Part shown: one piece after another, positions 1 to 52,105 of the stretch
How the letters are laid out: each line of letters opens with the position of its first letter
Position numbering within the stretch: position 1 is the first letter of the stretch
Program-made: the position numbers and the translations under genes
The notes under the pieces: generated by a model
Databases searched by the model: none
What the model was told of the DNA's origin: nothing
What the model saw: only the letters and a program-made list of their open reading frames with translations
IMG/VR virus record: IMGVR_UViG_2639762884_000001
Strand: one strand, 5' to 3'
Source: a virus
Taxonomy: Duplodnaviria > Heunggongvirae > Uroviricota > Caudoviricetes
Length of the DNA stretch: 64,000 nucleotides

Positions 1-1359
1 TATACGATCCGCATAACAACGGCCACAACGACAAGTGTTTCCGGTGCTCTCACTAATGCGGAGTTTATCTATGTATTTAATGGCACAGATTATTCTCCAG
101 GATGGCGAAGAGTATATAACACGAAAAACAAACCAACAGCCTCTGATGTCGGTGCATTACCTCTTACCGGTGGTACATTATCTGGAGGTTTGACATCTTC
201 TGGCGAGATCATTTCAAAATATGCAAATGGTTTCCGCATTGCTTACGGTAGCTTTGGGTTCTTTATCCGTAATGATGGATCGAACACATATTTCATGCTA
301 ACAGCATCAGGAGACACATTAGGTTCATGGAACGGTTTGCGACCTATTACAATTAATAATACCAGCGGTGCTGTATCAATTGGTAATGGACTAAATGTGA
401 CTGGTGGCGTAAATGGTAGTTTGAACGGTAATGCTTCAACAGCTACGAAGTTGCAAACAGCGAGAAACATCAATGGTGTTAAGTTTGATGGCTCAGGCGA
501 TATCAACATTAATACATTGGTATCTCGTGGCCGAGTTACGGCGTTAAGCGGTTCTACTCAAGGTACTGCTGGCATTCAAATGTACGAGGCGTACAACAAT
601 AGCTACCCGACCACGTATGGCAACGTATTGCACATGAAAGGTGCGAGTGCTGCTGGTGAGGGCGAGTTGCTTATTGGCTGGAGTGGTACGAGCGGTGCAC
701 ATGCGCCGGTTTTCATTCGCTCCAGAAGAGATACCACTGATGCGGCATGGTCAGCGTGGGCGCAGGTATATACCGCTAAGGATTCAATCCCTGGTGTGAA
801 TACAACCGGTAATCAGAATACTACTGGTAATGCCGCAACAGCCACAAAATTGCAGACAGCAAGGAAAATTGCTGGTGTGGCGTTTGATGGCTCTGCCGAT
901 ATAACTTTGACTGCGGCTAACCTTAATGCTTACACGAAAACAGAGGTAACAAACCTTCTAAGTTCCTATGTGAAGAGCAGTGCTCTTCCAAGCATGACTG
1001 TGCGAACTTCCTCTGTTTCAGGTGGGGATATGGGCATGAGCTTGTCCGCATTCATTAGCCACCTAAAATCAAATGGGGCGTTTAGCAAAAGTTATTGGAT
1101 TGGCTTTGGCGATGCTATGGGATTCAATGCTGGCAGTATCAACAATATAACGGGATTTGGTGCTGTAGAATTAGCAGAATCTATAATCGAAGTTTTTAAT
1201 CTACCTAACGGTGATTATACAATTCGTTTAACAACGTCACATAAAGCTGACTACGGTGGAGTTACAAACGCAATCCTCGTTTATCACTACCGTAGTAATA
1301 GAAGTCCGTCAGGTCAATGGCTGAAATTTGCAGGTACTGTTGGGGCAACAAGTAACTGA
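1..1359 (+). CDS. tail fibre protein, C-terminal portion (5' end upstream of window)
   Basis: Frame 1 open from base 1 to stop at 1357-1359; table ORF 190..1359 is only the part after the first Met; Gly/Thr/Asn/Ser-rich; two copies of fibre motif GNAxTATKLQTARxIxGVxFDGSxDI. Confidence 0.7.
   Translation, partial: YTIRITTATTTSVSGALTNAEFIYVFNGTDYSPGWRRVYNTKNKPTASDVGALPLTGGTLSGGLTSSGEIISKYANGFRIAYGSFGFFIRNDGSNTYFMLTASGDTLGSWNGLRPITINNTSGAVSIGNGLNVTGGVNGSLNGNASTATKLQTARNINGVKFDGSGDININTLVSRGRVTALSGSTQGTAGIQMYEAYNNSYPTTYGNVLHMKGASAAGEGELLIGWSGTSGAHAPVFIRSRRDTTDAAWSAWAQVYTAKDSIPGVNTTGNQNTTGNAATATKLQTARKIAGVAFDGSADITLTAANLNAYTKTEVTNLLSSYVKSSALPSMTVRTSSVSGGDMGMSLSAFISHLKSNGAFSKSYWIGFGDAMGFNAGSINNITGFGAVELAESIIEVFNLPNGDYTIRLTTSHKADYGGVTNAILVYHYRSNRSPSGQWLKFAGTVGATSN
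427..903 (+). repeat. intragenic duplicated tail-fibre motif (copies ~427-504 and ~826-903)
   Basis: NGNASTATKLQTARNINGVKFDGSGDI and TGNAATATKLQTARKIAGVAFDGSADI in the same frame. Confidence 0.6.
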
Positions 1360-1377
1360 TTTAGACATTATTTATAT

Positions 1378-1409
1378 GGCTGTGAGGTTTAAAATGCGAT
1401 CTCACAGCC
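1378..1409 (+). other. stem-loop downstream of tail-fibre gene (weak terminator candidate)
   Basis: ggctgtgag ... ctcacagcc inverted repeat; no clear T-run. Confidence 0.3.
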
Positions 1410-1479
1410 GCAATCATAGGGATATATTAGTGAGTTACTAGATACGAATTTGAACAGCCGTTAAACGGCATATGCATAG

Positions 1480-1499
1480 ATAGGTAAGTATGTACCTAT
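1480..1499. promoter_or_regulatory. intergenic ATAGGTAAGT...ACCTAT palindromic motif (family member)
   Basis: ataggtaagtatgtacctat, about 60-70 nt upstream of the holin-like gene; same motif family recurs in at least 15 intergenic regions. Confidence 0.3.
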
Positions 1500-1561
1500 A
1501 ATTGAAAGGAGAAGTGTGATATAAATCCGCCATCCCGATTTGACTTTTCATGGAGGAAAAT

Positions 1562-1885
1562 ATGTCGAACGAGATGGCGGGCGTTACAACAGAGCAAGTT
1601 GAGCGTATTGCCGCGATCGTTGCTCGGGAGGTTGTTGGTAAATTAGGTAAAGAGCTACGTGAAGAAATTGGCCAGGAGGTCAATGATCAGCTGAAAACCT
1701 ACTTTGGTGATATGACCCCGGCGCAACATAGTATTCAACACTCCAATCTGGACAAACTCCTTAACCGGTTAGATTCCATCTCCAGTGGGTTCTTTGGCGG
1801 CATTGTTTCTAAAATAACGTCGTTCATTATTACTGCACTGCTTTTGGGGTTAGCCGCGTATGGCGTAAAAAATGGACTGCAATAA
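1562..1885 (+). CDS. holin-like small membrane protein (single C-terminal TM)
   Basis: ATG at 1562 preceded by GGAGG; hydrophobic C-terminal segment ITSFIITALLLGLAAYGV; first gene of a lysis-type cassette. Confidence 0.35.
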   Translation: MSNEMAGVTTEQVERIAAIVAREVVGKLGKELREEIGQEVNDQLKTYFGDMTPAQHSIQHSNLDKLLNRLDSISSGFFGGIVSKITSFIITALLLGLAAYGVKNGLQ

Positions 1886-1898
1886 CAGGAGATCAAGG

Positions 1899-2591
1899 AT
1901 GAAGACTCCGAGAGGCATTCGTAATAATAACCCCGGTAATCTTGATAAAGGATCACCGTGGCAAGGTCTGGTTGCGAATCCAGACGAACCGCGCTTTTGC
2001 ACGTTTAAAGACCCTGTTTGGGGGATTCGTGCGCTGGCGGTGACTCTAATTACCTACCACGACAAACGTCGCGCAAAAGACGGCTCAAGTATCGATACCA
2101 TTCGTGAAGTTATTGAACGTTGGGCACCGCCGAATGAAAACAATACTGACGCCTACATTAATGAGGTGTCTAAAGCCGTTGGTGTAACCGCAGACATGAT
2201 CATCGATCTGCATGATTACGACATCCTTCGACCTTTGGTTGAGGCAATCATTCGCCATGAGAATGGGCGAGGTCCGCTAAAAACGCTGAACACCTGGTAT
2301 GCGGCAGAAGTTATTGAGGAAGGTCTGCGTCGAGCTGGCGTCGTTAAGCCGGTGAAAACCGTGAAGGCTGTTCCTGTAACTAAAGAAACCGCAGGCGCAA
2401 CTGTCACAGCAGGTATTGGTCTGGCGCAGCTGGCCGATGTTATGCAGCAGGTTTCCGCTGCTATGGATAAAGCACAAGGTCATATCTCTAGCGGGGATAC
2501 AGTACGCATCATCTTCGGTATTGCCACTATTGTTGTGGCAGGATTCATTGCCTGGTCGCAGGTAAGAAAACACCAGAAAGGGATGGTCTAA
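1899..2591 (+). CDS. putative endolysin-like protein with C-terminal membrane anchor
   Basis: ATG 1899 with AGGAG RBS; N-terminal RNNNPGNL-containing domain; hydrophobic C-terminus IIFGIATIVVAGFIAW; sits between holin-like gene and spanins; enzymatic family not assigned. Confidence 0.35.
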   Translation: MKTPRGIRNNNPGNLDKGSPWQGLVANPDEPRFCTFKDPVWGIRALAVTLITYHDKRRAKDGSSIDTIREVIERWAPPNENNTDAYINEVSKAVGVTADMIIDLHDYDILRPLVEAIIRHENGRGPLKTLNTWYAAEVIEEGLRRAGVVKPVKTVKAVPVTKETAGATVTAGIGLAQLADVMQQVSAAMDKAQGHISSGDTVRIIFGIATIVVAGFIAWSQVRKHQKGMV

Positions 2592-2592
2592 T

Positions 2593-2844
2593 ATGCTAGG
2601 CAGCCTGATGACAAAGCTAAAAGTTGCTTTGATTACGCTGGCTGCCGTTCTTTTCGTTCTTGTCGGCGCTTACACGATGGGCGGAAATGCGGCGCGACGA
2701 GCAATGGAAGAGAAGGCAAAACAGGAAGACAGAAAACGACTTCAAAGCACAGTGGATGTCAAAAATGAAACGGTTAATGAAGTGCGGCAAAAAGATGCCT
2801 CTGGTGTTCATCGCGAGCTGTTTGATAAATGGGTGCGTGATTAA
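2593..2844 (+). CDS. i-spanin (Rz-like)
   Basis: N-terminal TM (LITLAAVLFVLVGAY) followed by charged, coiled-coil-like region; overlaps o-spanin gene. Confidence 0.55.
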   Translation: MLGSLMTKLKVALITLAAVLFVLVGAYTMGGNAARRAMEEKAKQEDRKRLQSTVDVKNETVNEVRQKDASGVHRELFDKWVRD

Positions 2845-2992
2845 GACGCAGGCTCCAGGCGTGCTATTCTGCGATGCTGCAAATCCTATCTATGTGAGTA
2901 GAGAGGATTTTATGACTGAGGAAACGGAGCGACAGTTGCTTATCCACAATACGATAGGTGAAAGGCTGTGTGAGTGGGGGCACCTGAACTGA
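2765..2992 (+). CDS. o-spanin lipoprotein (Rz1-like), overlapping i-spanin in another frame
   Basis: MKRLMKCGKKMPLVFIAS-C signal peptide with lipobox IASC; short Cys-containing mature part; start inside the i-spanin gene. Confidence 0.55.
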   Translation: MKRLMKCGKKMPLVFIASCLINGCVIKTQAPGVLFCDAANPIYVSREDFMTEETERQLLIHNTIGERLCEWGHLN

Positions 2993-3216
2993 GTCGATGA
3001 TTGATGAGTGGTCTCAGTTTACCTTTTATCCTAAAGATGGCATCTTCACTCATATACACGCCTGTTCACTCAAGCTCATGTTGAATCATTTAGTAATTTG
3101 ATGTAGATTTATTAGGCATCCACGTAAGTGGACACATACAGGCTACGCATCCTCGTAGCCTTCAACCCCGAGAGGGGTGCCGCAATGACACTTGTGTTAA
3201 CGGCTAAGGTGGACAC

Positions 3217-3600
3217 ATGCTGAACGAGAAACGTTCTATACAAACTATTCGCGATTGCACGAGTATTATCGAGACTCATGTGCTGAATCAGCACAAGCTT
3301 GAAGTACGTAAGCTCAATAATGACGCTATTGAACCGGAAGACTCACGCTTCATCGTTACCTTCAAAGACGATGTTGAGCGCGCTGGTGCAAGCGTGAAGC
3401 CATTAGCTGAAGCAATTTACCTGAATGGTCGTGTTCGTTTTGTAGTCAAGCCAGCTAAACAGTACCCTGAGCTGTCTCGTTTTATCGAGGCTTTTTCGGA
3501 GGTTATTGAACATTCTATTCGCCGCTTCTTACGCAATCATGGTAGCATTGTCAGCACGGTTAAGGCTGATGATTCTGCTACAAAATGGCTCCTACACTAG
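3217..3600 (+). CDS. hypothetical protein
   Basis: ORF with AAGGTGGA RBS before ATG 3217. Confidence 0.5.
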   Translation: MLNEKRSIQTIRDCTSIIETHVLNQHKLEVRKLNNDAIEPEDSRFIVTFKDDVERAGASVKPLAEAIYLNGRVRFVVKPAKQYPELSRFIEAFSEVIEHSIRRFLRNHGSIVSTVKADDSATKWLLH

Positions 3601-4337
3601 ATAGCGCATATTCAAAAGATCTAAGCGAGTTTCCTCATAAAGGGGAGACTCGTGTTGTTCGTTTTGGCTTTCTTATCAATGAAGCCTCCCTCTATAAAAT
3701 CTCAGAAATTGAAATCATTGAACCAGAAGATGACATTTGCCTGTATGTCTCTATGGAACGTGTAGGTGCGCGCGACCAAGGCGACCTGAGCGAATTCATC
3801 TTAGATCGAGCGGATGAAGATGCCCCTGAAGAAGAGATTATCAAAGAGGTGCTCCAGTCCGGGCTTCTGGACGAAAACAAAAATACGATCGCTGGTAGGA
3901 TAGCTCTGCGTGAATATAGTTTTGTTGAAGACGGTAATGAGATCGAATGTTACCAGGTAGCCGGTGTCGAAACTGTCAGAGAGCGTCGTCAGCGAGGATT
4001 GTGTCACCGTACCTATCTCTTTCTTCTTCATTGGTATGAGCATTTAGTCTGCGACGATACACAAACCATTCCTGGTGCTAAGATCTGGGCAGGGCCTCTC
4101 ATGCGAACCGGCGATGTGCGTATATACAATGCCAAAACAGAAACGTTCGAGGATGTGTTAGGTGAGTACGGGATGGGGAAAGAAACCGGATTTTTGCCGT
4201 GGAACAGAGGATTGTTGCTTGATGCAGAGTTAAGCTCTTGGCTCCCAAACAAAGTGCAAGTTAACGTTCAGAAATTTATCGTACTTATCATCTCCCGCAA
4301 AACAAGAACTCCAGTAGGTTTATACCTAAAAGATTAA
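3585..4337 (+). CDS. hypothetical protein
   Basis: 250-aa ORF overlapping the upstream gene by 16 nt; followed by a terminator. Confidence 0.5.
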   Translation: MAPTLDSAYSKDLSEFPHKGETRVVRFGFLINEASLYKISEIEIIEPEDDICLYVSMERVGARDQGDLSEFILDRADEDAPEEEIIKEVLQSGLLDENKNTIAGRIALREYSFVEDGNEIECYQVAGVETVRERRQRGLCHRTYLFLLHWYEHLVCDDTQTIPGAKIWAGPLMRTGDVRIYNAKTETFEDVLGEYGMGKETGFLPWNRGLLLDAELSSWLPNKVQVNVQKFIVLIISRKTRTPVGLYLKD

Positions 4338-4342
4338 AAATC

Positions 4343-4366
4343 AGGCGACTTTGGTCGCCTTTTTGT
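4343..4366 (+). terminator. rho-independent terminator
   Basis: aggcgactttggtcgcct stem followed by ttttt. Confidence 0.6.
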
Positions 4367-4462
4367 TAACAGCCATTGATTCTCGCCTAAAAATTCTAAG
4401 GCAGCACCTACCATTTAACCTTTACACCACAGCCGTAGGCATTTAGGCTATATCACATATAA

Positions 4463-4480
4463 GAAAACAAGTTGTTTCAG
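4463..4480. promoter_or_regulatory. GAAAACAA-N-TTGTTT palindromic motif upstream of parA
   Basis: gaaaacaagttgtttcag, 50 nt upstream of ATG 4513; one of six near-identical sites. Confidence 0.45.
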
Positions 4481-4512
4481 ACGATAATTATATACGCAAA
4501 GGGAACTCTCCA

Positions 4513-5181
4513 ATGACCAAGATCTTTGTGGTTGGCGGCACAAAGGGCGGGCCTGGCAAATCCACCGTTGCCCAGCAAATTGCCGTTTGCCTGAAAGTCA
4601 AAAAGAAGAAGAAGGTTTATATCACCGATATAGATATTCAGCGCACGACAACGAGCTGGTGTGAAGACCGTCGACAGAACGAAGATCTTGAGCTGATTCC
4701 TTTTGCATACGTTCAAGATGACATCATTAAGCACCTAAAATCGCTTCAGGGTAGAGCTGAGTATGTAGTGGTAGATGCTGGTGGCTTTGACTCCGAAATT
4801 CAGCGACAAGCGATGCTGATGGCCGACGTTATCATTATCCCGCTGCGTCCTAAGCGTCGTGATTTGAAATCTTTACGTGACATCGATCCTATTATCGACA
4901 ATGTTCGCAATGTAAACGACAAAGTGAAAGTCCGCGCGGTCATGAACCAATGCCCGGCTTTGCCATCACAAGTGTCTCGCATTCTAGCGGCTAAAGAGAT
5001 TGTCGAGACGTTTGGCATCGAGTCTGCGCCAGTCAATCTATATAACCGCAACGTCTATGATGATGCGGAAGAGTCTGGTCGTTCTATCTTTGAAATGACC
5101 GGTAGCGAGCGCGACAAAAAGGCGGAAGCCGAGTTTGAAGAATTTGTAGATTATCTGTTGAGTCTGGAGGAAGAAGAATAA
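4513..5181 (+). CDS. parA: ParA-family partition ATPase (small type)
   Basis: Deviant Walker A GGTKGGPGKST near N-terminus; 222 aa; followed by small partner gene. Confidence 0.8.
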   Translation: MTKIFVVGGTKGGPGKSTVAQQIAVCLKVKKKKKVYITDIDIQRTTTSWCEDRRQNEDLELIPFAYVQDDIIKHLKSLQGRAEYVVVDAGGFDSEIQRQAMLMADVIIIPLRPKRRDLKSLRDIDPIIDNVRNVNDKVKVRAVMNQCPALPSQVSRILAAKEIVETFGIESAPVNLYNRNVYDDAEESGRSIFEMTGSERDKKAEAEFEEFVDYLLSLEEEE

Positions 5182-5540
5182 TGTCCATGAAAATGGGTGA
5201 CCTAGCAAAGCGCAAAGAGCCTGATGCACCGGCTAAGAACACAACTCCTTTGCGCCAACCAATCAGACCACAGGGACGCCCGACTCGTGGCAAAGAGAAA
5301 ATTAAAAGCCGCACGATGTCACTGGAAGACGAATACTTCGAACTGCTGGAGATGATGAAGTTCATCCCTCGCTTCGAGAAGTTCACCCGTTCTGACGTGA
5401 TTCGCGCAGCCATTTTCCATCTGGCAGAGAAGTCACCGCAGGAAATCGAGGACATCGTGAAACTTAACGAGGCGATCACTGCTGCCGATGTCACGATGCG
5501 TACCGATGAAATTAAACGCGAGTTAATGAAGAAAGGTTGA
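5181..5540 (+). CDS. small partition partner protein (ParB/ParG-like centromere-binding protein)
   Basis: 119-aa basic protein translationally coupled to parA (ATG overlaps stop); position only, no motif proof. Confidence 0.45.
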   Translation: MSMKMGDLAKRKEPDAPAKNTTPLRQPIRPQGRPTRGKEKIKSRTMSLEDEYFELLEMMKFIPRFEKFTRSDVIRAAIFHLAEKSPQEIEDIVKLNEAITAADVTMRTDEIKRELMKKG

Positions 5541-7732: not shown

Positions 7733-9073
7733 ATGACCGAACTTTGCCATACAGGACGCGGGCTGTCCGAAGAGTTTGATGAAGATTTCCAGAACAGACT
7801 GACGGCATATTTTTGTCGTGATCACGAGTTTCTTACTCGTGCGGGAGATCTGGTTGTGCCTAGCCAATTTGCCAATGCGGCCAATGCCATATTGGTTAAT
7901 ATGGTTTCGGGCTATTACCGTATGTACAAGAGCGCGCCCTCTTCATCTGCAATTCTGGATATGCTTAAGCGTGCGAAACGCGATAAGACTATCCGTGAGG
8001 AACTATTCGCCGATGTTGTTGCTGCGTTTAAGCGCATCCTTGCAGAAAAATTGTCCGATACCTCGTACATGGTTGACCAGGTATCAACCTTCGCAAAAAG
8101 CGTAGCGTTTGATGATGCTCTGATTAAGGCTGCTGAACTGAAAGAGAAAGGCGACTTTCAGGGGGCGATGGCAATCATGGCCAAGGTTCAGCAGATTGGA
8201 TCGAACGAAGCGACCGGAATCTATGACTACTACACCTCCGCAAGTGAGCGATTGAAAGCGCGTGAATATGAGGCTTCAGAGGAGTATGTGCCAAACAGCA
8301 TTACAACTGGACTCCCTCTGCTCGATAGGTTGTTGTACCAAAAAGGCTGGGCGAAGCGTGAAATGGTGCTCTTCATGGGGTTCGCTAAATCCGGTAAATC
8401 GACCGCAATGGGTGAGTTTTCCATAAACGCAACGCTTGCTGGCTACAATGTTCTGTATCTCTCGCTGGAGGTTCACACCACCATTTTATCCGACCGTTTT
8501 GATGCAAGATTGTCGGAGACAGAAATGTCCAAGCTAGTGGAACGGCGCGATGAGGTTCATCGTAAGTTGGCAGAGTTGGGAGCCACGAAGGGGATTGGTA
8601 GTTTGTGGGTGGTTGAGCGTCCGTCAGGAAGTATGTCACCGGCAGATCTGGACCGTATGCTTAACAGCATGAAAGCCAACGGCATGGTGCCTGACATGGT
8701 TGTTGTCGACTACGCAGATTTGATGCGTGCCAGTTATGACCTTCGTGATGATCGCGCCAACATTCGTAGTATCTACACCGATTTACGTGCTCTTTATGAC
8801 AAACATAACGTTGCTGGAATCACGGCATCGCAGACAAACCGTGAAGGTGGCGCGTCAGAAGTTGCCACAATGATGCACGCCGCCGACAACATCGAAAAAG
8901 TACGTATTGCTGACCTGGTAATAACGATCAACAAAACCGAAGAAGAAGAAGCGAAAGGAGAGGCTCGTCTCTACTTTGCTGGTTCACGTAACCAGCAGGG
9001 AGGGATCAGCATTCGCGTTAAACAAAACCTCGAACAAATGCGCTTCATTGAGCGAATCTTAGACGTTACCTAA
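7733..9073 (+). CDS. replicative DNA helicase (DnaB-like, RecA-fold C-terminal domain)
   Basis: Walker A GFAKSGKST; DnaB-type C-terminal region (VVVDYADLM, ITASQTNRE). Confidence 0.75.
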   Translation: MTELCHTGRGLSEEFDEDFQNRLTAYFCRDHEFLTRAGDLVVPSQFANAANAILVNMVSGYYRMYKSAPSSSAILDMLKRAKRDKTIREELFADVVAAFKRILAEKLSDTSYMVDQVSTFAKSVAFDDALIKAAELKEKGDFQGAMAIMAKVQQIGSNEATGIYDYYTSASERLKAREYEASEEYVPNSITTGLPLLDRLLYQKGWAKREMVLFMGFAKSGKSTAMGEFSINATLAGYNVLYLSLEVHTTILSDRFDARLSETEMSKLVERRDEVHRKLAELGATKGIGSLWVVERPSGSMSPADLDRMLNSMKANGMVPDMVVVDYADLMRASYDLRDDRANIRSIYTDLRALYDKHNVAGITASQTNREGGASEVATMMHAADNIEKVRIADLVITINKTEEEEAKGEARLYFAGSRNQQGGISIRVKQNLEQMRFIERILDVT

Positions 9074-21142: not shown

Positions 21143-23251
21143 ATGTCTAAAAAACGTTCCATCAAAGAGGTTCAGGACTTCCGTGACAGTGTAAAACGAG
21201 TAGTCGCTCTCCTTTCAGGTAAAAACATCCCTGTTGCAGAACGAGGGGACGACGCTTATGTACGCTATAACGATGATGGAGAGCCAATTCTCGTAAACAT
21301 CCCATCAATCCCGGATAACGCAACACCGGCATTGATGAATGCTGTGCGCGGATTTCTCGATCATGAGGTTGCTCACATTTTGTTTACCGATATTCGTGTG
21401 TCCAACAAAATGAGAGAAAAAGGACGCGTTCCTTCCTGGTCGCTATGGAATGCCTTAGAAGACGTGTTCATCGAGCGAAAAATGGGTCAGGTCTTTAACG
21501 GAACAAGACGTAATCTGATGGCAACTCAGCGCCTTATAATCGAAAAAGTCTTTAAACCAAAGGCTTCAGAGGCTATTGCTTATTGTGGCAAAGATCAGCG
21601 CGCGCTTTTTCTAAACTTCTTTCTCTGTCCGGTTGTAAGAGCCTGGGATGGCCAAGCACCGTTCGTAGATTTCATGGATGAATATTGGCCTGTCATTGAG
21701 AAACCAATTTCATTATTAAAAGAACATGGTATCGATGTGGCCGTGCGTAACATGTCTTGCACCGAGGATTGTGTAAAGGTGGCTGCGACCATAGCTAAGA
21801 TCCTCAAAGACACTGAAAGTGAAAGCAAAGGTAAGGAGTCAGCTCCGGGAAAAACTTCCGATCCTTCAGACGCTGACCAGACGGATGCCTCTGGAGAAAA
21901 CAATGAAGACAACGAAGATCATGAGACACCCTCAGCGTTAGATAATCACAAATCTATCAAATCAGAATCACACAGTAAGCACAAACATGATAATAACGAC
22001 AGTGATGATTCAGATAATTCTGAATCATCAGAAACAATATTCGATGATACAGAAAATGATAAAGAGGTATCAGATTCTGATGCTTCTGATAACGCGGTGT
22101 CAGAATCATTTACCGCTGACCACGAAAAAAGAAAAACGACAGAAGACGGCTCTTCAGATATTCCAACTCCGTCAAAAATGAGTCTGGAAGAGGCTTTAGA
22201 GGAGCTGGATAGCATAGAAGATGAAGTCGGAGGCATGACAGAAGATGCTCTATCCGAAACGATTAAAAGCGAGTTAACAGAAAGCTCGAAAAGCGAATAC
22301 AGGCCATACAATCGCTCATACGACTTCATCGGCTCGATTGATCAGGCAGAAGCCCATATCAAACGGCTTATTAAAACATTCTCCGATATTGATTTAGGAG
22401 GATATCCAATCAGCCGCTATCGCATCGTTCCTGAAGGCAACCAGCTCTTCGACAAATATATTGAAAAGCATCTTTCGTCAGGTGTTTCGTCGACGCTGGC
22501 AAAAGACCTGGAGCGAGCAATAGCAAGCAGAAACAGAGTTCAGTTTATACCGGGCCAGCGTCGGGGGCGCATTCATGGTTCTAGTATCTACAGATTAGCA
22601 ATGAATGATGATCGCGTGTTTCGTAAAAAAGAAGAATCTAAAGCCGTTAACGCCTGTGTTCAACAAGTGATTGATTTATCAGGTTCAATGAGTGGTATAA
22701 CGATACAATTGGCTCTTGCAAGTGCATATACCATCGCCGATGCCCTTGATCGAATAAATGTTCCCAACATTATCACCGGCTTCACTACATTTGGTAGTCA
22801 TATGGCGGCAGGAGAACTTAAGGCTGTCAAGTATGAGTTCTCTCGCTTTGAATCTTTAATGCTACCTATCATCAAAAATTGGAATGAAAAGGTAAATTCT
22901 CGCGAAGTTCGCTCACGTATGGGGTGCGTAGGCTACACATTCCCACTTCTTAATAACGTGGATGGTGAAAGCATAGCCAGCCTTGCATCGTTATTTTCCG
23001 GTCGCATGGAGGACAGGAAGATCATGCTTGTTCTGAGTGATGGCGCGCCGTGGGCTGTTGGGAGAGGTTTTGACGCTCATTTGCGTTCGGTTGCGAAGCA
23101 AATTGAAACGCAGACTGACATTGATTTGATGGCAATTGGCATCATGACTGACGCACCGGAGAGATTTTACTCAAATCATGCCCTGGTAACGAGCGTTGAT
23201 AGTCTTGGTTCATCTGTAGTTACTGAACTATCTCGTATCATTTTAAAGTGA
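21143..23251 (+). CDS. CobT-like vWA-domain protein with long acidic Ser/Asp-rich linker
   Basis: MIDAS-like DxSxS (VIDLSGSMSG) in C-terminal half; ~120-aa acidic low-complexity region; paired with downstream AAA+ gene. Confidence 0.55.
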   Translation: MSKKRSIKEVQDFRDSVKRVVALLSGKNIPVAERGDDAYVRYNDDGEPILVNIPSIPDNATPALMNAVRGFLDHEVAHILFTDIRVSNKMREKGRVPSWSLWNALEDVFIERKMGQVFNGTRRNLMATQRLIIEKVFKPKASEAIAYCGKDQRALFLNFFLCPVVRAWDGQAPFVDFMDEYWPVIEKPISLLKEHGIDVAVRNMSCTEDCVKVAATIAKILKDTESESKGKESAPGKTSDPSDADQTDASGENNEDNEDHETPSALDNHKSIKSESHSKHKHDNNDSDDSDNSESSETIFDDTENDKEVSDSDASDNAVSESFTADHEKRKTTEDGSSDIPTPSKMSLEEALEELDSIEDEVGGMTEDALSETIKSELTESSKSEYRPYNRSYDFIGSIDQAEAHIKRLIKTFSDIDLGGYPISRYRIVPEGNQLFDKYIEKHLSSGVSSTLAKDLERAIASRNRVQFIPGQRRGRIHGSSIYRLAMNDDRVFRKKEESKAVNACVQQVIDLSGSMSGITIQLALASAYTIADALDRINVPNIITGFTTFGSHMAAGELKAVKYEFSRFESLMLPIIKNWNEKVNSREVRSRMGCVGYTFPLLNNVDGESIASLASLFSGRMEDRKIMLVLSDGAPWAVGRGFDAHLRSVAKQIETQTDIDLMAIGIMTDAPERFYSNHALVTSVDSLGSSVVTELSRIILK

Positions 23252-23266
23252 ACAAAACAGCCTTAA

Positions 23267-23289
23267 CGATAAGTAACCACTTACGATAG
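23267..23289. promoter_or_regulatory. ATAAGTAA...ACTTAC motif (family member)
   Basis: cgataagtaaccacttacgatag between the CobT-like and CobS-like genes. Confidence 0.3.
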
Positions 23290-23346
23290 ATAATGATATA
23301 TTTATATAAGAAGTTGAACGCTCATTAGAAAACAAAGGAAAAACGC

Positions 23347-24582
23347 ATGACTACTACTGCACTGCAAAATGAAAAAAATCCTTCTGATTACCTTGTTTGC
23401 AAGTGGTGCGGAAAATCATTTCACTATTTTAAGTCCCATGTAGCCAATGGTAATTGCGAGGGCATTCCTGAGTCAGTAAAAGATGCCGATCCTGACACCG
23501 TACTGAAAATGTACACAACACAGTTTCCAGATGAGCCAACGCTATCGAAAAAGGCACTTGATGCAATTCAAGCTAAACGTGCCGAGCAAAAAAGCGAAAT
23601 GGCCAAATCATCTGGCGTGACCAGTAGCCCAGGCTACACAGGCACAGTTGAGTACAAGACAGATCTGGTCGCAGCTCACGAACTGCTAAATGTAACGGTG
23701 AAAGAACTCGGAACAAAACGTGGGACGCCGCTCATGGTTAGCGTCAACGTCAATACGCCGTTTCCAGAGTTCGTTCCAGAAGTGAAGAAGGGATACGTAT
23801 ATGGCGACTTCGAACTGATCAAAGACATTTTCATGATGCTTGAACTTGGCATACCTGGCTATTTGTGGGGTCATGCAGGAACAGGCAAATCTTCATTGCC
23901 TACACAACTATGTGCTTTGCTCAATCGTCCGTTAATCCGTGCCCAACATACAGCATCAATGGAAGAGGCTCATGTTACGGGACAAATTCTGGCGCGTGAT
24001 GGCTCTACGTATTTCGAGCCTGGCTTGCTTGCGCTCGCAATGAAGCATGGCTGGGTTTACCTCGCGGATGAATACGACTTTGCGTTTCCACAGATTCTTG
24101 GCGTGTATCAGCCAGTGCTGGAAGGTGAAGCGTTGGTCATCAAAGAGGCGACTCCAGAATGGCGTCGCATTACTCCGCATGAACGGTTTGCTTTCATTGG
24201 CACTGGCAACACGAACGGATCTGGTGATGAAACCGGCTTGTACCAGGGTACAAACATCCAGAACGCCGCGAACTTTTCGCGTTTTGGCATCGTTTCGAAT
24301 GTGAAATACATGAGCAAAGAGGCAGAGATCAACATGTTGATAAATGCCGGTATCGTGGATGAATACGCAGAAAAGATGGTTAAGTTTGCCGGTATCGTTC
24401 GCGATGGATACGAAGAACACCTTATCAGTCAGCCAATTGGCCCTCGTGAACTTTTGTTGTCGGCCAAGATTGGAATGATGCGAGGCGACTTTGTGACAGG
24501 TATTGAGCGTTCTTTCATTAACAAACTCCCTTCAGCTTCTGCACAAGCGGCTCGTGAAGTTGTTCAAAAAATATTTGGTTGA
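23347..24582 (+). CDS. CobS-like / MoxR-like AAA+ ATPase
   Basis: Walker A GHAGTGKSS, Walker B-like VYLADEYD; N-terminal Cys cluster (CKWCGKSF...HVANGNCEG). Confidence 0.6.
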   Translation: MTTTALQNEKNPSDYLVCKWCGKSFHYFKSHVANGNCEGIPESVKDADPDTVLKMYTTQFPDEPTLSKKALDAIQAKRAEQKSEMAKSSGVTSSPGYTGTVEYKTDLVAAHELLNVTVKELGTKRGTPLMVSVNVNTPFPEFVPEVKKGYVYGDFELIKDIFMMLELGIPGYLWGHAGTGKSSLPTQLCALLNRPLIRAQHTASMEEAHVTGQILARDGSTYFEPGLLALAMKHGWVYLADEYDFAFPQILGVYQPVLEGEALVIKEATPEWRRITPHERFAFIGTGNTNGSGDETGLYQGTNIQNAANFSRFGIVSNVKYMSKEAEINMLINAGIVDEYAEKMVKFAGIVRDGYEEHLISQPIGPRELLLSAKIGMMRGDFVTGIERSFINKLPSASAQAAREVVQKIFG

Positions 24583-24788
24583 TCGTGCGTAAAGGATGTT
24601 TCGGCTCTCTTATCGCTGCTTCTGAAACTGGTAAGGCTTGTCTGGTGTGTCCAGACAAGCCCGATTGTCACCAGTCAGCAAAAGAAGTTGCGATTTCGAT
24701 GCATGGGAAGTTCGTAGGCTTCCCCAATGACAAAATCAAAAAAACCAGAAAGGTAAAAACACATGAAGGCACTGATGGTTCGAACTGA
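24579..24788 (+). CDS. small Cys-rich hypothetical protein (uncertain)
   Basis: 69-aa ORF with TTG/GTG start only; CxnCxxCx5C pattern; overlaps the polymerase start. Confidence 0.25.
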   Translation: MIVRKGCFGSLIAASETGKACLVCPDKPDCHQSAKEVAISMHGKFVGFPNDKIKKTRKVKTHEGTDGSN

Positions 24789-27700
24789 CTTCTCACTTGG
24801 GGAGTCGGCTCTAAAAGCAGAAAACGCGGTGAAGATTGCCAGAGAAGCTGGCTACACCGCTGTAATTTCAGCAGATAGCATGAATATTGCGAGCGTTATT
24901 CCACTACAACGTGCCGCTGGTGACGACATGGCGGTTATTTGTGGTGTGAAACTAAACATTGTTGATGATCCCACATACGAGCACCGGGCTAAACTTGCTA
25001 AAGAATCTATGAGATGTATGGAATCATTAGAGCGGGGACGTAACTACTCGTTTACCGCTCTAATTAAAAATGAGCAAGGATATCGCGACATCTGCGAACT
25101 AATGACGGTGGCCAACACACGAGAACAGTTCTACTTTGTACCGCGTCTCTCGCTCGAACAGTTGGTTTCTACATATGCCAAAGGCAACATCATCCTGCTC
25201 ACTTCCGACATCGGTAGCGTGTTCCAACGCAACGATTTTGCAAAAATCATAAGCTCACTGATTACAGCGGGCGGGAAAGACAACTTCTATAGCGTGGTTT
25301 ATCCGCACCCTACCCCATTCTACGACCAGATTAACGTCCGAGCGATGAAAGTAGCCAGCGCACTGAAAATAGAGCCAGTAGCGTTCTATCCCGCTTATTA
25401 CGAATCGATCGACGATGCAGACATTAAAGACATTGCGCACATGGTTACGAACAACATAAAAATCGACCAGCCGCATCGTCTGCGTATCCCCCACCAGCGA
25501 GATAACGCCGTCAATGGTCGCCGCCATCTCCTTGAGGCGCTTAAAGCCTTCTCCGTTCGCATGGATGTGCCGGTAACAGCTGCAATGGCCTCAACAACGC
25601 AGGACTCCATTATCGAAGCCTGTACATGGCGCTGGCATGAATTGCCACCAGCACTGCCCAAGATGGCAGACGACGAGCCTGCAACGCTGATGAAACTGGC
25701 TGTTGCAGGGCTGCGCAAACGTCTTACCACAAAAGAGTTTGGCTACACACCACCGGCTTCTGAGAACAGGGTTTATGTTGAGCGACTTAAGTACGAAATG
25801 GACACGCTTACTCGCCTGGGATTTTGTGGTTACTTCCTGATGGTACGCGATCTGATGAATCACAGCCGTGAAACTGGCATTCCTGTCGGGCCTGGTCGTG
25901 GTTCCTCCGCTGGCTCTTTGGTGGCATGGTGCATAGGCATAACCAACGTCGACCCTATCCGTCACGGTCTTCTGTTTGAACGTTTCATCAACCCTGAGCG
26001 TCTCGACTTGCCAGATGCGGATTTGGACTTCAGCCAGGCACGTCGCCATGAGGTGATCGAGTATCTGAATGAACGATACGGCGAAGATTACGTTGCGGGT
26101 ATTCCGAACTTCACATATCTGGGCGCAGCCTCTGCACTACGTGACACCGCTCGTATTTATGGTGTGGAGTCCGCAGATATGGCGGTATCAAAAGAACTGA
26201 AGAACGTCGAGGATGATAGCCTTCCATTGGAAGAGCTGCGCGAACAACTGGCAAGTCTCGACAAATACGCGACAAAATATCCTGATGCATTCAATGCAGC
26301 CTGCAAGTTACAAAGCCTTATGCGTGGCTTTGGTAGACATGCGGCAGGGATGATCGTAGCAGGTGTTCCTCTGACAGAACGTACACCGGTTGAGCGCCGT
26401 GGTGACGCGCGTTGTATCGCATTTGACAAGCGTTACTGCGAGGCTATGGGCCTAATTAAGCTGGACGTACTTGGCCTAGCAACTCTCGATTTGCTTGATA
26501 GTGCAAAACGCTACATTAAAGAGAACACAGGTGAAGATATCAATCTTGATGCCATTTCTCTTGAAGATCGCAAGGTGCTGGATGGTTTTGCTGCTGGGTA
26601 CACTCAAGGTGTTTTCCAGCTTGAATCAGGCCCAATGCGCAAGCTGCTTAAAGATTTAGGTGGTGGAATTGAGCCAATGAGCTTTAAAACGGTCGTCGCT
26701 ACGACTGCGCTCTTCCGGCCGGGGCCAATTCAGTCAGGCATGTTGGATGACTATGTTTCTGTCGCCAAAGGCTTTATGACGCCGGAATCATTACACCCCG
26801 TTCTTGATGAACTTACCGCGGAAACAAATGGCGTGATTCTCTATCAGGAACAGACGATGAACGCGACTCGATTGCTTGCCGGCTTCACAATGGCTGAAGC
26901 TGACGCTGTGCGTTCCGCAATCGGTAAGAAGAACATGGAAAAAATGAAGAGCATGGGCGAGAAGTTCATCGTTCAGGCTCAAGCTGGCTGGATAGACGTT
27001 GAGCTGGAAGATGGCACTACACAGCGCATTCACCGTGCGGAACATTTTAAATGCGAAGACGGAACTCTGAAAACTGTCGAAGAGGCACTTGAGCACGGCG
27101 CAAAACTACCTATAAACGCAGTACGCGTTACAGCGTCACATCCAGGGCTATCAGAGATGAAAGCGAAGGAGATCTGGACCGCATTCGAAAAAAATGGTGC
27201 CTACCAGTTCAACAAATCACACTCTGTTGCTTACTCCTTGATCAGTTATCAATCTATGTGGTTGAAAACTCATTATCCCGCAGAGTTTTTCGCTGCTGCT
27301 CTCACTATTCTTGGCGAAGATAAACACCAGGGGCTGGTTAAAGATGCGCTGACCTATGGTATTCGCGTATTGCCACCAGACGTTAACGTGTCATCCAACC
27401 GAATCGAGATCCGCACGCTTGAAGATGGCAGCCAGGTGCTGTATGCGCCCTTCTCTGCTGTGAAGGGGTGTTCTGAGAATGGCTGCCAAGCCATCATGAG
27501 AGCGCGAGAAAAAGTTGGCGGCAAATTCGAGTCACTGGCGCAATTCGAAGAAGCTGTCGAGAAACGTGCCTGTAATAGTCGAGTGCGCGAATCGCTGCAA
27601 AAAGTAGGGGCGTTTGCATCCATCGAGCCAGGTAGTCTGCCAGCAACTGATCCAGAGCGCCTACGCGACCAGGCTGAATTGATGGGAAACCTTGTCATAG

Positions 27701-28281
27701 ACGCAGTTAAAGCCTCACGTCCGTTTGAGATGAACCCCAAACGTTCGGCTGAGATTAACGTGCTCATGACACGGATGGCGGCTGAAATGGGCTTAGGTGA
27801 TGAACTAATCCGCCCCAGCATTGGTATTAAGCCGAAAATCATGATCATTCTGGACAATGCGAACGGCAATGATGCTCGAACCGGTTACTTTATGGAGAAC
27901 GGATACGACGATTTTAAGGCCAAGCTATTGACGGCTGGAGATTTACGCATGGGCGATCTGTATGTCACAGGCGTTTGCAAAAAGGTGAAAGACAAAGAAA
28001 AGGACTACACCAAAGACGAGATCGGCCAGTTCACCGACTTTATGCGTGAAGAGATCAATCTGGTACGTCCGACCTATGTGCTGACGTGTGGCAGCCGGGC
28101 GACGTCGCTCTTCAACAACAAGATCAAACCATCCGACCTGGTTGGACGCAAAGAGTATCTGCCGGAGCTGGATGTGACTGTTTTCTACGGATTTAACCCG
28201 AATATTTTGTACTTTCGCCCAGAGGAAGGCGAAAAGCTGGAAGCAATTCTTGCAGAGGTAGCGGAGACTATTAGCAAATGA
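24763..28281 (+). CDS. DNA polymerase III alpha-type catalytic subunit (DnaE family) with atypical C-terminal domain
   Basis: PHP-domain N-terminus; palm motif [48 protein letters not shown] closely matches bacterial DnaE; 1172 aa; conserved AAAAACACATG leader. Confidence 0.9.
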   Translation: [1172 protein letters not shown]

Positions 28282-28456: not shown

Positions 28457-29422
28457 TTAACAAATTCTATTATTAACTAGTATAGTATGGAGTTTATTAT
28501 TTATAGGGGAATACGGATCGAAATCACTCATCATGACACTATTTGATTCGCACGCCTGTTCAAAGGCATACATAATTATAGGCATATAGCGCTCATGACA
28601 TTTTTTAAGTGATTTAACTTCCTCTGATAGATACTCTAGTCGATTGTTACCTCTAATAGCCAATTCCACCTCATCATATGAGTACAACAAATCGTTTAAA
28701 TCACAGAAAAAATTAAAATTTGGTAGTCCATGTTTTAAATCCCCGTCCACAATTGTTTCTTCAAAGAATTCCCCTAATGCAGTAATGTTTCTCTCAATAC
28801 CTTCGCATCGTTCAATGATCTTCAGATCTTCACTAGATAGCCATAATCTAAGCCATTTCTCTCTATCCCTTGGAGATTTCAGATATTGGTCTTCGTTAAA
28901 TGTTACTGATGTACTTCCTGAGTTATTGTAATCCGCTGTACTTGATAACGATGCGATGGTTTGTTTGTCTAAATGCCGCCAGTAAATATCTGGCTCTTCA
29001 TGCTTATTATCTTCGTTTAGACAAATTAAAACGATCACTATAGGGAAATCGCATTCCCCCCAATACTTTAAATTTTTATAGGGGATCTGTACTCCTAGAC
29101 TACTACTCATTGTGCGTGAGGTGGTTTTTACCTGAACGCCAATAAACATACCGGTAGAAAGTTCATTTTCATAGATTTCAACCTGTGCATCCAACCCCAT
29201 ATCAATATCCAGCAGTCGACAAGGCCATTTGAAATAACGGGAAATCCAATAAGCAAATAAGTACTCACCAGCGTGTCCTTCTGCACTGGTCTTCGGATAT
29301 GTCATGCCTTCAGTTTTATTTTTTTCTGCTGCTGACCTCGCAGACTTAACTTTTGGGGGTGGGGACAGTTCTTTAGTCGGCACAGGCTTTTCTGCTTTTG
29401 CTTGATTGTTAGCTTTATTCAT
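28457..29422 (-). CDS. hypothetical protein with DUF4365-like (restriction-endonuclease-like fold) domain; candidate defence gene
   Basis: Opposite strand, AT-rich, terminator-bounded; Lys/Pro-rich N-tail then GEYLFAYWISRYFKWPCRLLDIDMGLDAQVEIYE...IGVQVKTT; domain assignment from memory. Confidence 0.5.
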   Translation of the reverse strand: MNKANNQAKAEKPVPTKELSPPPKVKSARSAAEKNKTEGMTYPKTSAEGHAGEYLFAYWISRYFKWPCRLLDIDMGLDAQVEIYENELSTGMFIGVQVKTTSRTMSSSLGVQIPYKNLKYWGECDFPIVIVLICLNEDNKHEEPDIYWRHLDKQTIASLSSTADYNNSGSTSVTFNEDQYLKSPRDREKWLRLWLSSEDLKIIERCEGIERNITALGEFFEETIVDGDLKHGLPNFNFFCDLNDLLYSYDEVELAIRGNNRLEYLSEEVKSLKKCHERYMPIIMYAFEQACESNSVMMSDFDPYSPINNKLHTILVNNRIC

Positions 29423-29565
29423 TGATTTTATTCTCACTTTGTTCTGTTCGCTTTATGCCCTGATTCTGCCCTTTAGCTCCCATACTGTCTACCGCTAATC
29501 ATAGCAGTAAAGCTCTTTTTATTTGATATAATCAAATACACAAAATTAAGTTGGAACCTATCAAA

Positions 29566-30114: not shown

Positions 30115-31143
30115 ATGTCTAAGACATTACTTGATTTGCTTAACAAAACTCGTGAAGACATTGCCGCCAAACGTGGTAACAACGTTGATCTGACTCGCTT
30201 AAAAGACGGCGTTAACTATATCCGCATCTTCCCGAATAAAGACGACCCAAACGGTAAGTTCTTCCAGACTTTCGGTATGCACTACGTTAAGTATCAGAAC
30301 GAGGAAGGTAAAGAAGCAACCAACGCTTATATTTGTGAGCAACATACTCACGGTCGCGCTTGTCAGCTATGCGAAATGGTGATGGAAGGTCGCGCTCGTC
30401 ACAAGGGTAACAAAGCAATGGAAGAACGCATCGGTCAAATGCGTGCCACTCCTCGCTACCTGGTCAACGGCATTCTTTCTGCTCGTGAGGATTTCGCAGA
30501 TGCTGAGAAATGCCAGTTAATCGAGCTGCCGTCTACTGTATTCGATGATATCTGCAAAGCAATCACCGAAGACATCGCTGATGATATCGGCAATCCACTG
30601 AGCAAAGAGGAAGGCTACGCATTCCTGATTAAACGTACTGGCTCTGGTCGCGATACCAAATATGACGTCTCGCCTAAGCGTAAAGTCTACAAAGGCGATA
30701 TCGAAGATAAATTCTGGAACACCCAGCATGATCTGATCGCATACGCAAATCAGGCTGATGAAACTCGTCTTCTGTCGACAGTTCGCACTATGGGTCGTCT
30801 GATTGGCATCGCTGCACCAACTGCCGCAGCATCTGCACCAGCAATTTCCTCAACCGCGAAAACATCGGCTGCGGCACTACCTGGATTTGGCTCTGTCACT
30901 GGTCATACAGAAGGAGCGACGGCTGTAGCAACCGCGCACACACCGGCTTCTGAACCAACCAGTCTGGTTGATGAAGAAATCCTCCGTGCCGTTGAAACTG
31001 AATTTAAACCAGAGGCAAGTTCCGCTGCCGTTGCCGTATCAGTCAAAGAGTCTGAAGCAGTCGCAGCGACATCTGTAGCAACCGCATCTGCGACGGAAGA
31101 TGAAGGTCTGGATGACCTACTGAGAGAGCTGGACTCTCTGTAA
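30115..31143 (+). CDS. single-stranded DNA-binding protein (T4 gp32-like)
   Basis: His/Cys zinc-site-like cluster (EQHTHGRACQLCEM); Ala/Ser/Thr-rich linker; acidic C-terminal tail DEGLDDLLRELDSL. Confidence 0.6.
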   Translation: MSKTLLDLLNKTREDIAAKRGNNVDLTRLKDGVNYIRIFPNKDDPNGKFFQTFGMHYVKYQNEEGKEATNAYICEQHTHGRACQLCEMVMEGRARHKGNKAMEERIGQMRATPRYLVNGILSAREDFADAEKCQLIELPSTVFDDICKAITEDIADDIGNPLSKEEGYAFLIKRTGSGRDTKYDVSPKRKVYKGDIEDKFWNTQHDLIAYANQADETRLLSTVRTMGRLIGIAAPTAAASAPAISSTAKTSAAALPGFGSVTGHTEGATAVATAHTPASEPTSLVDEEILRAVETEFKPEASSAAVAVSVKESEAVAATSVATASATEDEGLDDLLRELDSL

Positions 31144-51547: not shown

Positions 51548-52105
51548 ATGACAACGATTGTTGCAGGCATCGATATCGAGTCTACGGGGCTGGATTTCCT
51601 TTCTGGTCATAAAATTATTGAAATCGCAATTACCCGCTATGAACTGGAGACACAGAGACATATTGATAGTCTGGAGATGCGTTTTAACCCTCGCAGGAAC
51701 ATAGATCCGAAAGCTCAAGCCGTTCATGGCATTTCATTAGAACAGCTGGCAGCTGAACCTTTGTTGTCAAATCATGCCAGCGAAATTGGCGCTTATATGG
51801 AGGCATGTAGTGCGTGGGTTGCTCATAACGGCGAAGCGTTTGATATACCATTTATTAGACACGAGTTTTCAGGGTATGGAGTAAGACTGCCAGACGTTCC
51901 CGTTATAGATACTATGTTATCGGGATTGTGGGCCACAGAAGACGGCAAACGTCCTCGCCTTGAAGAATTGGCCTTCTCTCTTGGCTTTATATACGATCAT
52001 ACCAAAGCACATAGTGCCTTATATGACACAAACTTAATGATGCAATGCTTCTTTAAGGCACGTAATAAATACGGATTTTTTAAATTACCCTCTGAAATTG
52101 TGTAA
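51548..52105 (+). CDS. DnaQ-like 3'-5' exonuclease (DEDDh family)
   Basis: Exo I motif GIDIESTG, Exo II-like AHNGEAFDIPFI, C-terminal H...D (AHSALYD); ATG 51548 with AAGGAG RBS. Confidence 0.75.
   Translation: MTTIVAGIDIESTGLDFLSGHKIIEIAITRYELETQRHIDSLEMRFNPRRNIDPKAQAVHGISLEQLAAEPLLSNHASEIGAYMEACSAWVAHNGEAFDIPFIRHEFSGYGVRLPDVPVIDTMLSGLWATEDGKRPRLEELAFSLGFIYDHTKAHSALYDTNLMMQCFFKARNKYGFFKLPSEIV

Follow-up and report, generated by a model that had tools for sequence, protein, structure and literature searches.

What the C-terminal domain of a phage DNA polymerase is, and what it is kept for, are the questions raised by one gene in the virus record IMGVR_UViG_2639762884_000001 (IMG/VR; Caudoviricetes), of which a stretch of 64,000 nucleotides was analysed (hereafter the window). 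The gene (24763..28281, + strand) is a single uninterrupted open reading frame (ORF) for a dnaE-type, C-family DNA polymerase of 1172 aa. A preliminary description, made from the DNA letters alone, had proposed that positions 27820-28281, which are aa 1020-1172 and the stop codon at the 3' end of this ORF, resemble a degenerate uracil-DNA glycosylase (UDG), and all of the peptides that it quoted were located in the ORF. Our results demonstrated, from both fold and sequence homology, that the C-terminal domain is a member of the UDG superfamily. As for its function, we favour, with a probability of roughly 0.55, a non-catalytic module that would contact DNA or a partner in the replisome. The polymerase region shares 96% nucleotide identity with Escherichia phage PhiR41_1 and 85.5% with Salmonella phage SSU5, indicating that the window is part of an SSU5-like phage-plasmid; the gene is annotated as 'DNA polymerase III alpha subunit' in both.

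The single-sequence searches of Pfam and the PDB were borderline and would not settle the homology by themselves. Pfam PF03167 matched with an E-value of 0.0012 and 19.3 bits (cut-off 24.3), and phmmer of the single sequence against the PDB returned family-4 UDGs exclusively, though weakly (E 0.02-0.16). The NCBIfam model TIGR00758 (UDG_fam4) matched the C-terminal 193 aa with an E-value of 5.7e-9 and a score of 35.9 bits, below its curated cut-off of 125.3, and NF040953 scored 27.3 bits, below its cut-off of 250. A word-indexed search for homologs of the C-terminal 213 aa gave six close fragments; the alignment was built after HMMER had gone exhaustively through 1.84 billion cluster representatives and found 142 relatives, most of them proteins of about 1100 aa with the UDG-like domain as their C-terminus. 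Relatives with the same architecture exceed the Pfam PF03167 gathering score. When the profile of a 43-sequence alignment of the UDG-like domain was searched against the PDB, it matched the family-4 UDG of S. tokodaii (4zbx, E 6.8e-20), the T. maritima structures 1l9g and 1vk2 (E ~3e-18), T. thermophilus (Tth) UDGa (1ui0, E 3.2e-15), UdgX (E ~1e-12) and family 5 (2d3y, E 0.28). This profile alignment was one of two checks suggested in the preliminary description, and it bore out the claim that the C-terminus follows the order and spacing of the family-4 motifs. The likeness to family-4 UDGs is much stronger than chance would give. Furthermore, PHROG 17 (PolA) matches the UDG-like domain with an E-value of 1e-6, and Foldseek against viral models recovered UDG-fused PolA proteins, the SP-15 polymerase among them.

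Structure prediction, the other suggested check, likewise gave a UDG fold rather than an unrelated one. UDG families 1-6 have in common an alpha/beta fold with a four-stranded parallel sheet. The AlphaFold2 model of the domain, for which the 43-sequence alignment was the input, had a predicted local distance difference test score (pLDDT) of 94.8 and a predicted TM-score (pTM) of 0.90. In a Foldseek search of the PDB with this model, family-4 UDGs (4zbx, 1ui0, 1l9g) ranked first (E ~1e-10, TMq 0.78-0.81), followed by UdgX (TMq 0.73-0.77) and then by TDG, family 5 and MUG, and the 50 best PDB matches listed were UDG-superfamily members without exception. When the full-length model was used instead, family-4 UDGs aligned with it over 185-193 columns (TMt 0.77-0.79), indicating that the fold starts near aa 990 and includes the helix 992-1009. 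The catalytically degenerate, family-4-derived domain of the UDG superfamily thus occupies aa ~990-1172 (27730..28278, +). Positions 27820-28281 do lie inside the UDG fold as proposed, but the domain begins earlier than they do, at about 27730. The fold of the window DnaE is predicted to be complete. The possibility that the C-terminus is a gene of its own, or an artefact of a frameshift, was ruled out, for there is one ORF and it is conserved from end to end in SSU5, PhiR41_1, pJN2-26 and Cyrano.

The fold was retained, and the residues which make it an enzyme were not. In Tth UDGa the uracil pocket consists of E41, G42, E47, F54, N80 and H155, while N89 places the attacking water (Xia et al., 2017, PMC5387724). 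In that enzyme, H155S lowered k2 more than 1000-fold, N80A lowered k2/Km about 40-fold, and the substitutions of E41 and G42, E41D included, were all harmful (PMC5387724). We took the register from HMMER alignments to 1ui0 and 4zbx and counted the columns in 102 polymerase-fused cluster representatives. The remnant of motif A, L1030-D-N-A-N-G-N-D1037 (27850..27873, +), aligned with G40-E41-G42-P43-G44-E45-E46-E47 of Tth UDGa. GE(A/G)PG has here become LDNAN (1030-1034), in which the acid alone is retained, as D1031 in place of E41; D was found in this column in 91/102 of the fused relatives. The G42 column, N1032 in the window, holds C, A, G or S over the clade and N, T or G inside the SSU5 subgroup. 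The P43 column (A1033) had P in 77/102 and A in 16/102, and the E47 column (D1037) had E in 66/102 and D in 28/102. The stacking F54 is replaced by M1044, in a column without aromatic conservation (Phe in 9/102).

The same was observed in the other motifs. Strand beta-2, Y1067-V-T-G-V-C-K-K-V-K1076 (27961..27990, +), aligned with Y77-I-T-N80-I-V-K-C84-R-P of Tth UDGa, so that the uracil-reading N80 corresponds to G1070, with Asn in 0/102 fused relatives, and the iron-sulfur ligand C84 corresponds to K1074, with Cys in 6/102. The remnant of motif B, G-F-N1145-P-N-I-L-Y-F1151-R-P (28189..28221, +), aligned with T-Y-H164-P-A-A-A-L-Y170-N-P of the S. tokodaii enzyme. In place of the catalytic H155 stands N1145, in a column that held N in 63/102, S in 24/102, T in 12/102 and H in 1/102. 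The Pro of motif B (P156, here P1146) was kept in 99/102, and F1151 pairs with Y170 of the S. tokodaii enzyme, the aromatic at 1151 being near-invariant. Other near-invariant positions are Y1067, T1069, K1073, K1076, E1097, P1103, G1110, G1128 and D1137, besides P1146. The preliminary description was right that the catalytic motifs are replaced; however, its register was off by one, since it is LDNAN and not DNANG that corresponds to GE(A/G)PG, and N1145-P-N1147 that corresponds to H-P-A. In aa 950-1172 there are only two cysteines, C1072 and C1109, both outside the ligand columns, which indicates that no 4Fe-4S cluster is present here. In family-4 enzymes, the four cysteines of this cluster are a CxxC close to the N-terminus and two more that follow strand 2. 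The upstream CxxC can still be found in 40/102 of the fused relatives, a trace of family-4 ancestry.

Taken one by one, the family-4 enzyme features that we looked for in the window domain (motif A, motif B, Asn80, Phe54, the iron-sulfur cysteines and scores above the curated thresholds) were all absent. As the column counts show, the uracil-reading Asn and the catalytic His had already been lost in the ancestor of the whole DnaE-fused clade, and their absence is not peculiar to the window element. From the residues whose mutation cripples Tth UDGa we infer strongly that the domain is non-catalytic for uracil, in agreement with what had been supposed before; both the canonical catalytic and the uracil-recognition residues are replaced.

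Could the domain be an enzyme still, on other terms? A new class of glycosylase on the family-4 scaffold, acting on a base other than uracil or removing uracil slowly during replication, would make use of D1031, D/E1037 and the MUG-like N-P motif B. The conservation of D at the E41 position, of an acid at the E47 position (94/102) and of N/S/T-Pro in motif B (99/102) is in line with this. Family-2 UDG enzymes function without the His of motif B. In addition, active UDG-polymerase fusions do exist, namely the SPO1/SP15-like family-A polymerases (bioRxiv 10.1101/2025.03.26.645540). Nevertheless, we consider such an enzyme unlikely. Apart from the acids, every residue shown to be important in Tth UDGa has changed, and E41D is itself harmful there (PMC5387724). 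The G42 position, at which families 1 and 2 have their water-positioning Asn/Asp, is variable, neither the base-reading Asn nor the stacking Phe is left, and no base-modification genes are annotated in the SSU5-like records that were inspected. It seems a slim chance that the whole DnaE-fused clade shares a re-tooled pocket which would serve as a replication-coupled glycosylase or base sensor for a non-uracil base on a C-family template. If it did, replicative polymerases of families A, B and C would each have recruited UDG-type base surveillance independently. Two narrower roles were also considered. A UdgX-like cross-linking role was rejected, for the His of the R-loop, GEQPG and HPS are all lacking (cf. 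PMC10359453), and a 'uracil read-ahead' sensor like that of archaeal PolB was judged unlikely, with the uracil-specific Asn in 0/102 and the stacking Phe in 9/102 of the clade.

If the domain is no longer a glycosylase, it might be thought to have no function at all. To address selection, the ratios of nonsynonymous to synonymous substitutions (dN/dS, Nei-Gojobori) for aa 1026-1172 were calculated, and they were 0.032 against SSU5, 0.063 against PhiR41_1, 0.020 against Klebsiella phage pJN2-26 and 0.012 against Cyrano. In these four pairwise comparisons, the values of the UDG-like domain were the same as or below those of the polymerase core, which shows strong purifying selection and indicates that the domain is still functional. 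In all, 942 PLSDB plasmids carry it, 624 of them at 95-99% identity, and their hosts include Klebsiella, Escherichia, Enterobacter, Yersinia, Salmonella and others. The fusion is also present in distant cultured phages (Pseudomonas nickie-like and Rhizobium RHEph10-like), and the DnaE-UDG fused clade comprises about 100 clusters at 50% identity.

These observations bear on the idea of a vestigial relic, in which the inherited fusion would act as a cap for folding or stability without any specific interaction. The catalytic motifs are indeed gone, and the gene is a mosaic, so the domain travels by recombination. Yet dN/dS values of 0.01-0.06 equal those of the catalytic core, the fusion has been kept in the distant phages and across the clusters mentioned above, and the piece with (HhH)2 and UDG-like domain stays as an ORF of its own where a homing endonuclease splits the gene. 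A relic is therefore very improbable. The mosaic itself is visible along 24763-28281: the synonymous divergence (dS) from PhiR41_1 rises from 0.03 in the PHP part to 0.74 in the UDG-like part, and the latter is nearer to SSU5 (98% aa identity, dS 0.36) than the remainder of the gene is (dS 0.7-1.1). The splitting was observed in Acinetobacter plasmids of ~110 kb. For example, in A. baumannii p1OC068 (5-5459) the dnaE homologue lies in three pieces corresponding to aa 23-381, 372-783 and 795-1171; a hypothetical gene (1380-2267) lies between the first piece and the second, and the HhH+UDG piece is immediately preceded by a NUMOD4 gene of the homing-endonuclease type. This splitting explains the many HhH+UDG proteins of ~390 aa in metagenomes. 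PGAP named the split-off piece of the Acinetobacter plasmids 'uracil-DNA glycosylase family protein'. In one relative (P0039), an intein was found at the same boundary between fingers and HhH.

The position of the domain in the polymerase gives a further indication of its role. The protein is a C-family (DnaE-type) polymerase by its PHP domain (aa 6-175; 24778..25287, +; PF02811, E 6.5e-13), its Pol III alpha catalytic core and fingers (aa 309-740; 25687..26982, +; PF07733, E 1.3e-73, and PF17657, E 7.8e-44) and its (HhH)2 domain (aa 866-955; 27358..27627, +; PF14579, E 1.7e-16), the last of which is the final segment homologous to cellular DnaE. The order of the domains is PHP, Pol3, fingers, (HhH)2, a conserved linker helix and the UDG-like domain. 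The polymerase aspartates are retained (PDADLDF, KLDVLGL) and aligned with D401, D403 and D555 of E. coli. The full-length AlphaFold2 model (pLDDT 89.3, pTM 0.84) had its best Foldseek matches in Pol III alpha of Taq, Mtb and E. coli (E 5e-61). Compared with E. coli DnaE, there is an insertion of 52 residues in the fingers (aa ~749-800, window 27007-27162), predicted as a small beta-rich excursion, and it is the least confident part of that model (pLDDT 61-73).

BLASTP aligned aa 4-956 with residues 9-893 of E. coli DnaE at 30% identity, and the homology ended there or, with the family hidden Markov model (HMM) in HMMER, at residue 897 of 1160. No match to the OB domain (PF01336) or to the tau-binding C-terminal domain was found in the window polymerase in Pfam and NCBIfam scans, and NF004226 scored 678.6 bits, below its cut-off of 1002. 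Since homology to E. coli alpha stops after (HhH)2, the OB and tau-binding domains have been replaced by the UDG-like domain, which, judged from these alignments, stands where the two of them sit in E. coli alpha. The earlier suggestion that the usual tau-binding C-terminus is replaced therefore held.

Between (HhH)2 and the UDG-like domain lies the conserved linker helix (aa 964-977; 27652..27693, +), with R966 and Q970-A-E-L-M974 (QAELM, 27670-27684) and the family consensus R..DQxELmPGl. Among 37 full-length relatives, R966 and Q970 each reach a conservation of at least 90%, and this linker had the lowest dN/dS in the gene (0.007-0.01). QAELM begins 14 residues past the end of the E. coli DnaE alignment and resembles the clamp-binding 920-QADMF-924, making it a possible internal beta-clamp-binding motif, which we regard as a lead and not as a claim. 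It lies inside a helix that AlphaFold2 predicted with confidence, which counts against an exposed clamp-binding peptide at aa 964-977. Neither BLASTP nor the family HMM pairs QAELM with QADMF, and by eye it matches E. coli 896-AALMNSL-902 about as well.

In the reading that we favour, the family-4-derived UDG fold, which has lost the residues for recognition and excision of uracil as well as the iron-sulfur cluster, is an integral part of the polymerase that strong selection has preserved. It takes the place of the ssDNA-binding OB domain and the tau-binding domain directly after (HhH)2 and the linker helix. The old DNA-binding face of the UDG (Y1067, T1069, K1073, K1076, G1110, G1128, P1146 and the aromatic at 1151) may then hold the template or duplex DNA, or a replisome partner, and such holding could stabilise a polymerase for which no clamp, clamp loader or tau appears to be encoded by the phage. 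The annotation of Cyrano, a well-annotated close relative, lists neither a sliding clamp nor a clamp loader, and neither a dUTPase nor a separate UDG. Two observations weigh against this reading. The UDG-like domain is acidic, with an isoelectric point (pI) of 5.05 and a net charge of -4 (family median pI 6.3); this composition is unlike that of a generic DNA clamp and slightly weakens the putative DNA-binding role. Also, the acidic pocket positions D1031 and D/E1037 are ~90% conserved in the 102 fused relatives. A pure binder of the DNA backbone has no need of them, and the pocket may therefore bind a ligand or be catalytic, or the role of the domain may be structural only.

The acidity would be easier to reconcile with a protein hub that organises the replisome, where the fold would bind not DNA but the phage helicase, primase, epsilon-like exonuclease or gp32-like SSB, or else the clamp or clamp loader of the host. 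The phage's own helicase, primase, SSB and epsilon-like exonuclease need some coupling to the polymerase, and the domain occupies the position of the tau-binding C-terminal domain, as an earlier study also describes (PMC3919608). A precedent is found in poxviruses, where the UDG D4 is tied to the polymerase via the bridge protein A20 (cited in PMC3201878). On the other hand, conservation is highest at positions that real UDGs have as well, in what were the pocket and the DNA-contact loops (Y-x-T, K1073, K1076, the LG loop and the motif-B Pro), and no new surface patch was identified among the conserved positions. We thus regard the hub as conceivable but doubtful, and a module that contacts DNA, or a partner, through the old UDG face remains our preference.

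The architecture is not new. Timinskas, Balvociute, Timinskas & Venclovas (NAR 42:1393, online 2013, PMC3919608) described a 'DnaEX' variant of Y. pestis and S. enterica that ends in a UDG domain. It has the same family and architecture, PHP-Pol3-(HhH)2, with the OB and C-terminal domains replaced by a PF03167 'archaeal-type' UDG domain, and it shows no structural difference from the window DnaE. In Y. pestis and S. enterica plasmids, the UDG-like domain is 96-97% identical to that of the window, indicating that we are dealing with the same protein. That a UDG domain stands in for the OB and tau-binding domains of these plasmid-borne polymerases had therefore been reported already in 2013, and our finding is mostly a rediscovery; the relatives are also already labelled by Pfam and PGAP. 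The passages on the variant in that paper are silent on the loss of catalytic residues and iron-sulfur ligands, and they treat the gene as an extra bacterial polymerase and not as the replicase of a phage-plasmid (PMC3919608). An earlier survey of viral C-family polymerases noted a divergent C-terminus and nothing further (PMC3201878). What is added here is modest new detail, read from sequence comparisons: the catalytic degeneracy throughout the fused clade, the loss of the iron-sulfur cluster in the SSU5 branch, and a constraint equal to that of the polymerase core.

Comparison with other systems places the domain among several UDG folds attached to viral replicative polymerases, i.e., those of N4, SPO1 and SP15 (family A), of poxviruses (family B) and of the window clade (family C). 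With the family-4 UDGs (UDGa: 1UI0, 1L9G/1VK2, 4ZBX) it has in common the fold (TM ~0.8) and the order and spacing of the motifs; motif B keeps its Pro, and the Y-x-T strand and the LG loop are conserved too. Those enzymes are free-standing and carry the catalytic motifs and a 4Cys iron-sulfur cluster, whereas the window domain is fused to a polymerase and has neither. UdgX of M. smegmatis, a family-4-like uracil-DNA cross-linking protein, is related in fold and sequence, but it keeps GEQPG, HPS and the KRRIH R-loop with His109 (PMC10359453), none of which occurs in the window domain.

A published parallel is that of the N4-like family-A polymerases, whose family-4 UDG domain lacks catalytic residues and was proposed to be a processivity module (2023, PMC10201439). 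There, too, a degenerate family-4 UDG fold is permanently fused to a phage replicative polymerase, and by analogy the processivity or structural role proposed for it might apply here. The two differ in that the window polymerase belongs to family C and not A, and in that the N4-like domain is N-terminal, wedged between the exo and pol domains, and has deletions (a helix and a beta-hairpin), while the window fold is complete in the model. The SPO1- and SP15-like family-A polymerases also join a UDG fold to a phage replicative polymerase, but their UDG domain is active (Missoury et al., 2025, bioRxiv 10.1101/2025.03.26.645540); it retains motifs A and B and excises dU ahead of the fork, and both motifs are replaced in the window domain. 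The UDG-like domains of SPO1 and T5 had been proposed as processivity factors by analogy with vaccinia D4-A20 (PMC3201878). In the poxvirus D4 (UDG)-A20-E9 holoenzyme, a UDG fold was likewise recruited as an accessory or processivity component (cited in PMC3201878), with the difference that D4 is a separate subunit working with a family-B polymerase and the window domain is fused. The SSU5-like elements, which are common in clinical Enterobacteriaceae (the 942 PLSDB plasmids above), could be a convenient system in which to ask why UDG folds recur on unrelated viral replicative polymerases. Poxvirus D4 is a catalytically active, family-1-like UDG. In mpox, as in SP15-like PolA, the template strand is what the UDG pocket faces.

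The dnaE gene lies within a large, self-contained module for replication, recombination and nucleotide metabolism (window 7733-55442). Among the products encoded there are a helicase (7733-9070), primase (9221-10330), ligase, UvsY-like protein, gp32-like SSB (30115-31011+), FEN, RecA-like protein, RepA, SbcCD, RuvC, RNR, a MazG-like protein, ThyX, PNK, DHFR, the epsilon-like exonuclease (51548-52102), Dam and RNase H. Directly downstream of dnaE, on the opposite strand (28457-29437, -), a DUF4365 protein of 326 aa is encoded (Pfam E 2.3e-16), which PADLOC matched to Aga_REase-PNTD1-PNTD2 (E 2.2e-10) and which lies in a stretch of lower GC (41%). In the relatives, this slot holds gp053 and an AlpA-like regulator (SSU5) or HicAB (Cyrano), and it looks like a variable hotspot for accessory or defence genes. 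Directly upstream of dnaE, in all relatives inspected, are a CobT-like VWA protein of 702 aa and a dynein-type AAA_5 ATPase of 411 aa (window 21143-24788); the annotations of this pair vary and include 'porphyrin/cobalamin biosynthetic'. A Cys-rich ORF of 69 aa (24579-24788) overlaps the start of dnaE. Further upstream, at 16466-17023, four tRNA genes are clustered in the window, namely those for Asn-GTT, Tyr-GTA, Thr-TGT and Ser-TGA.

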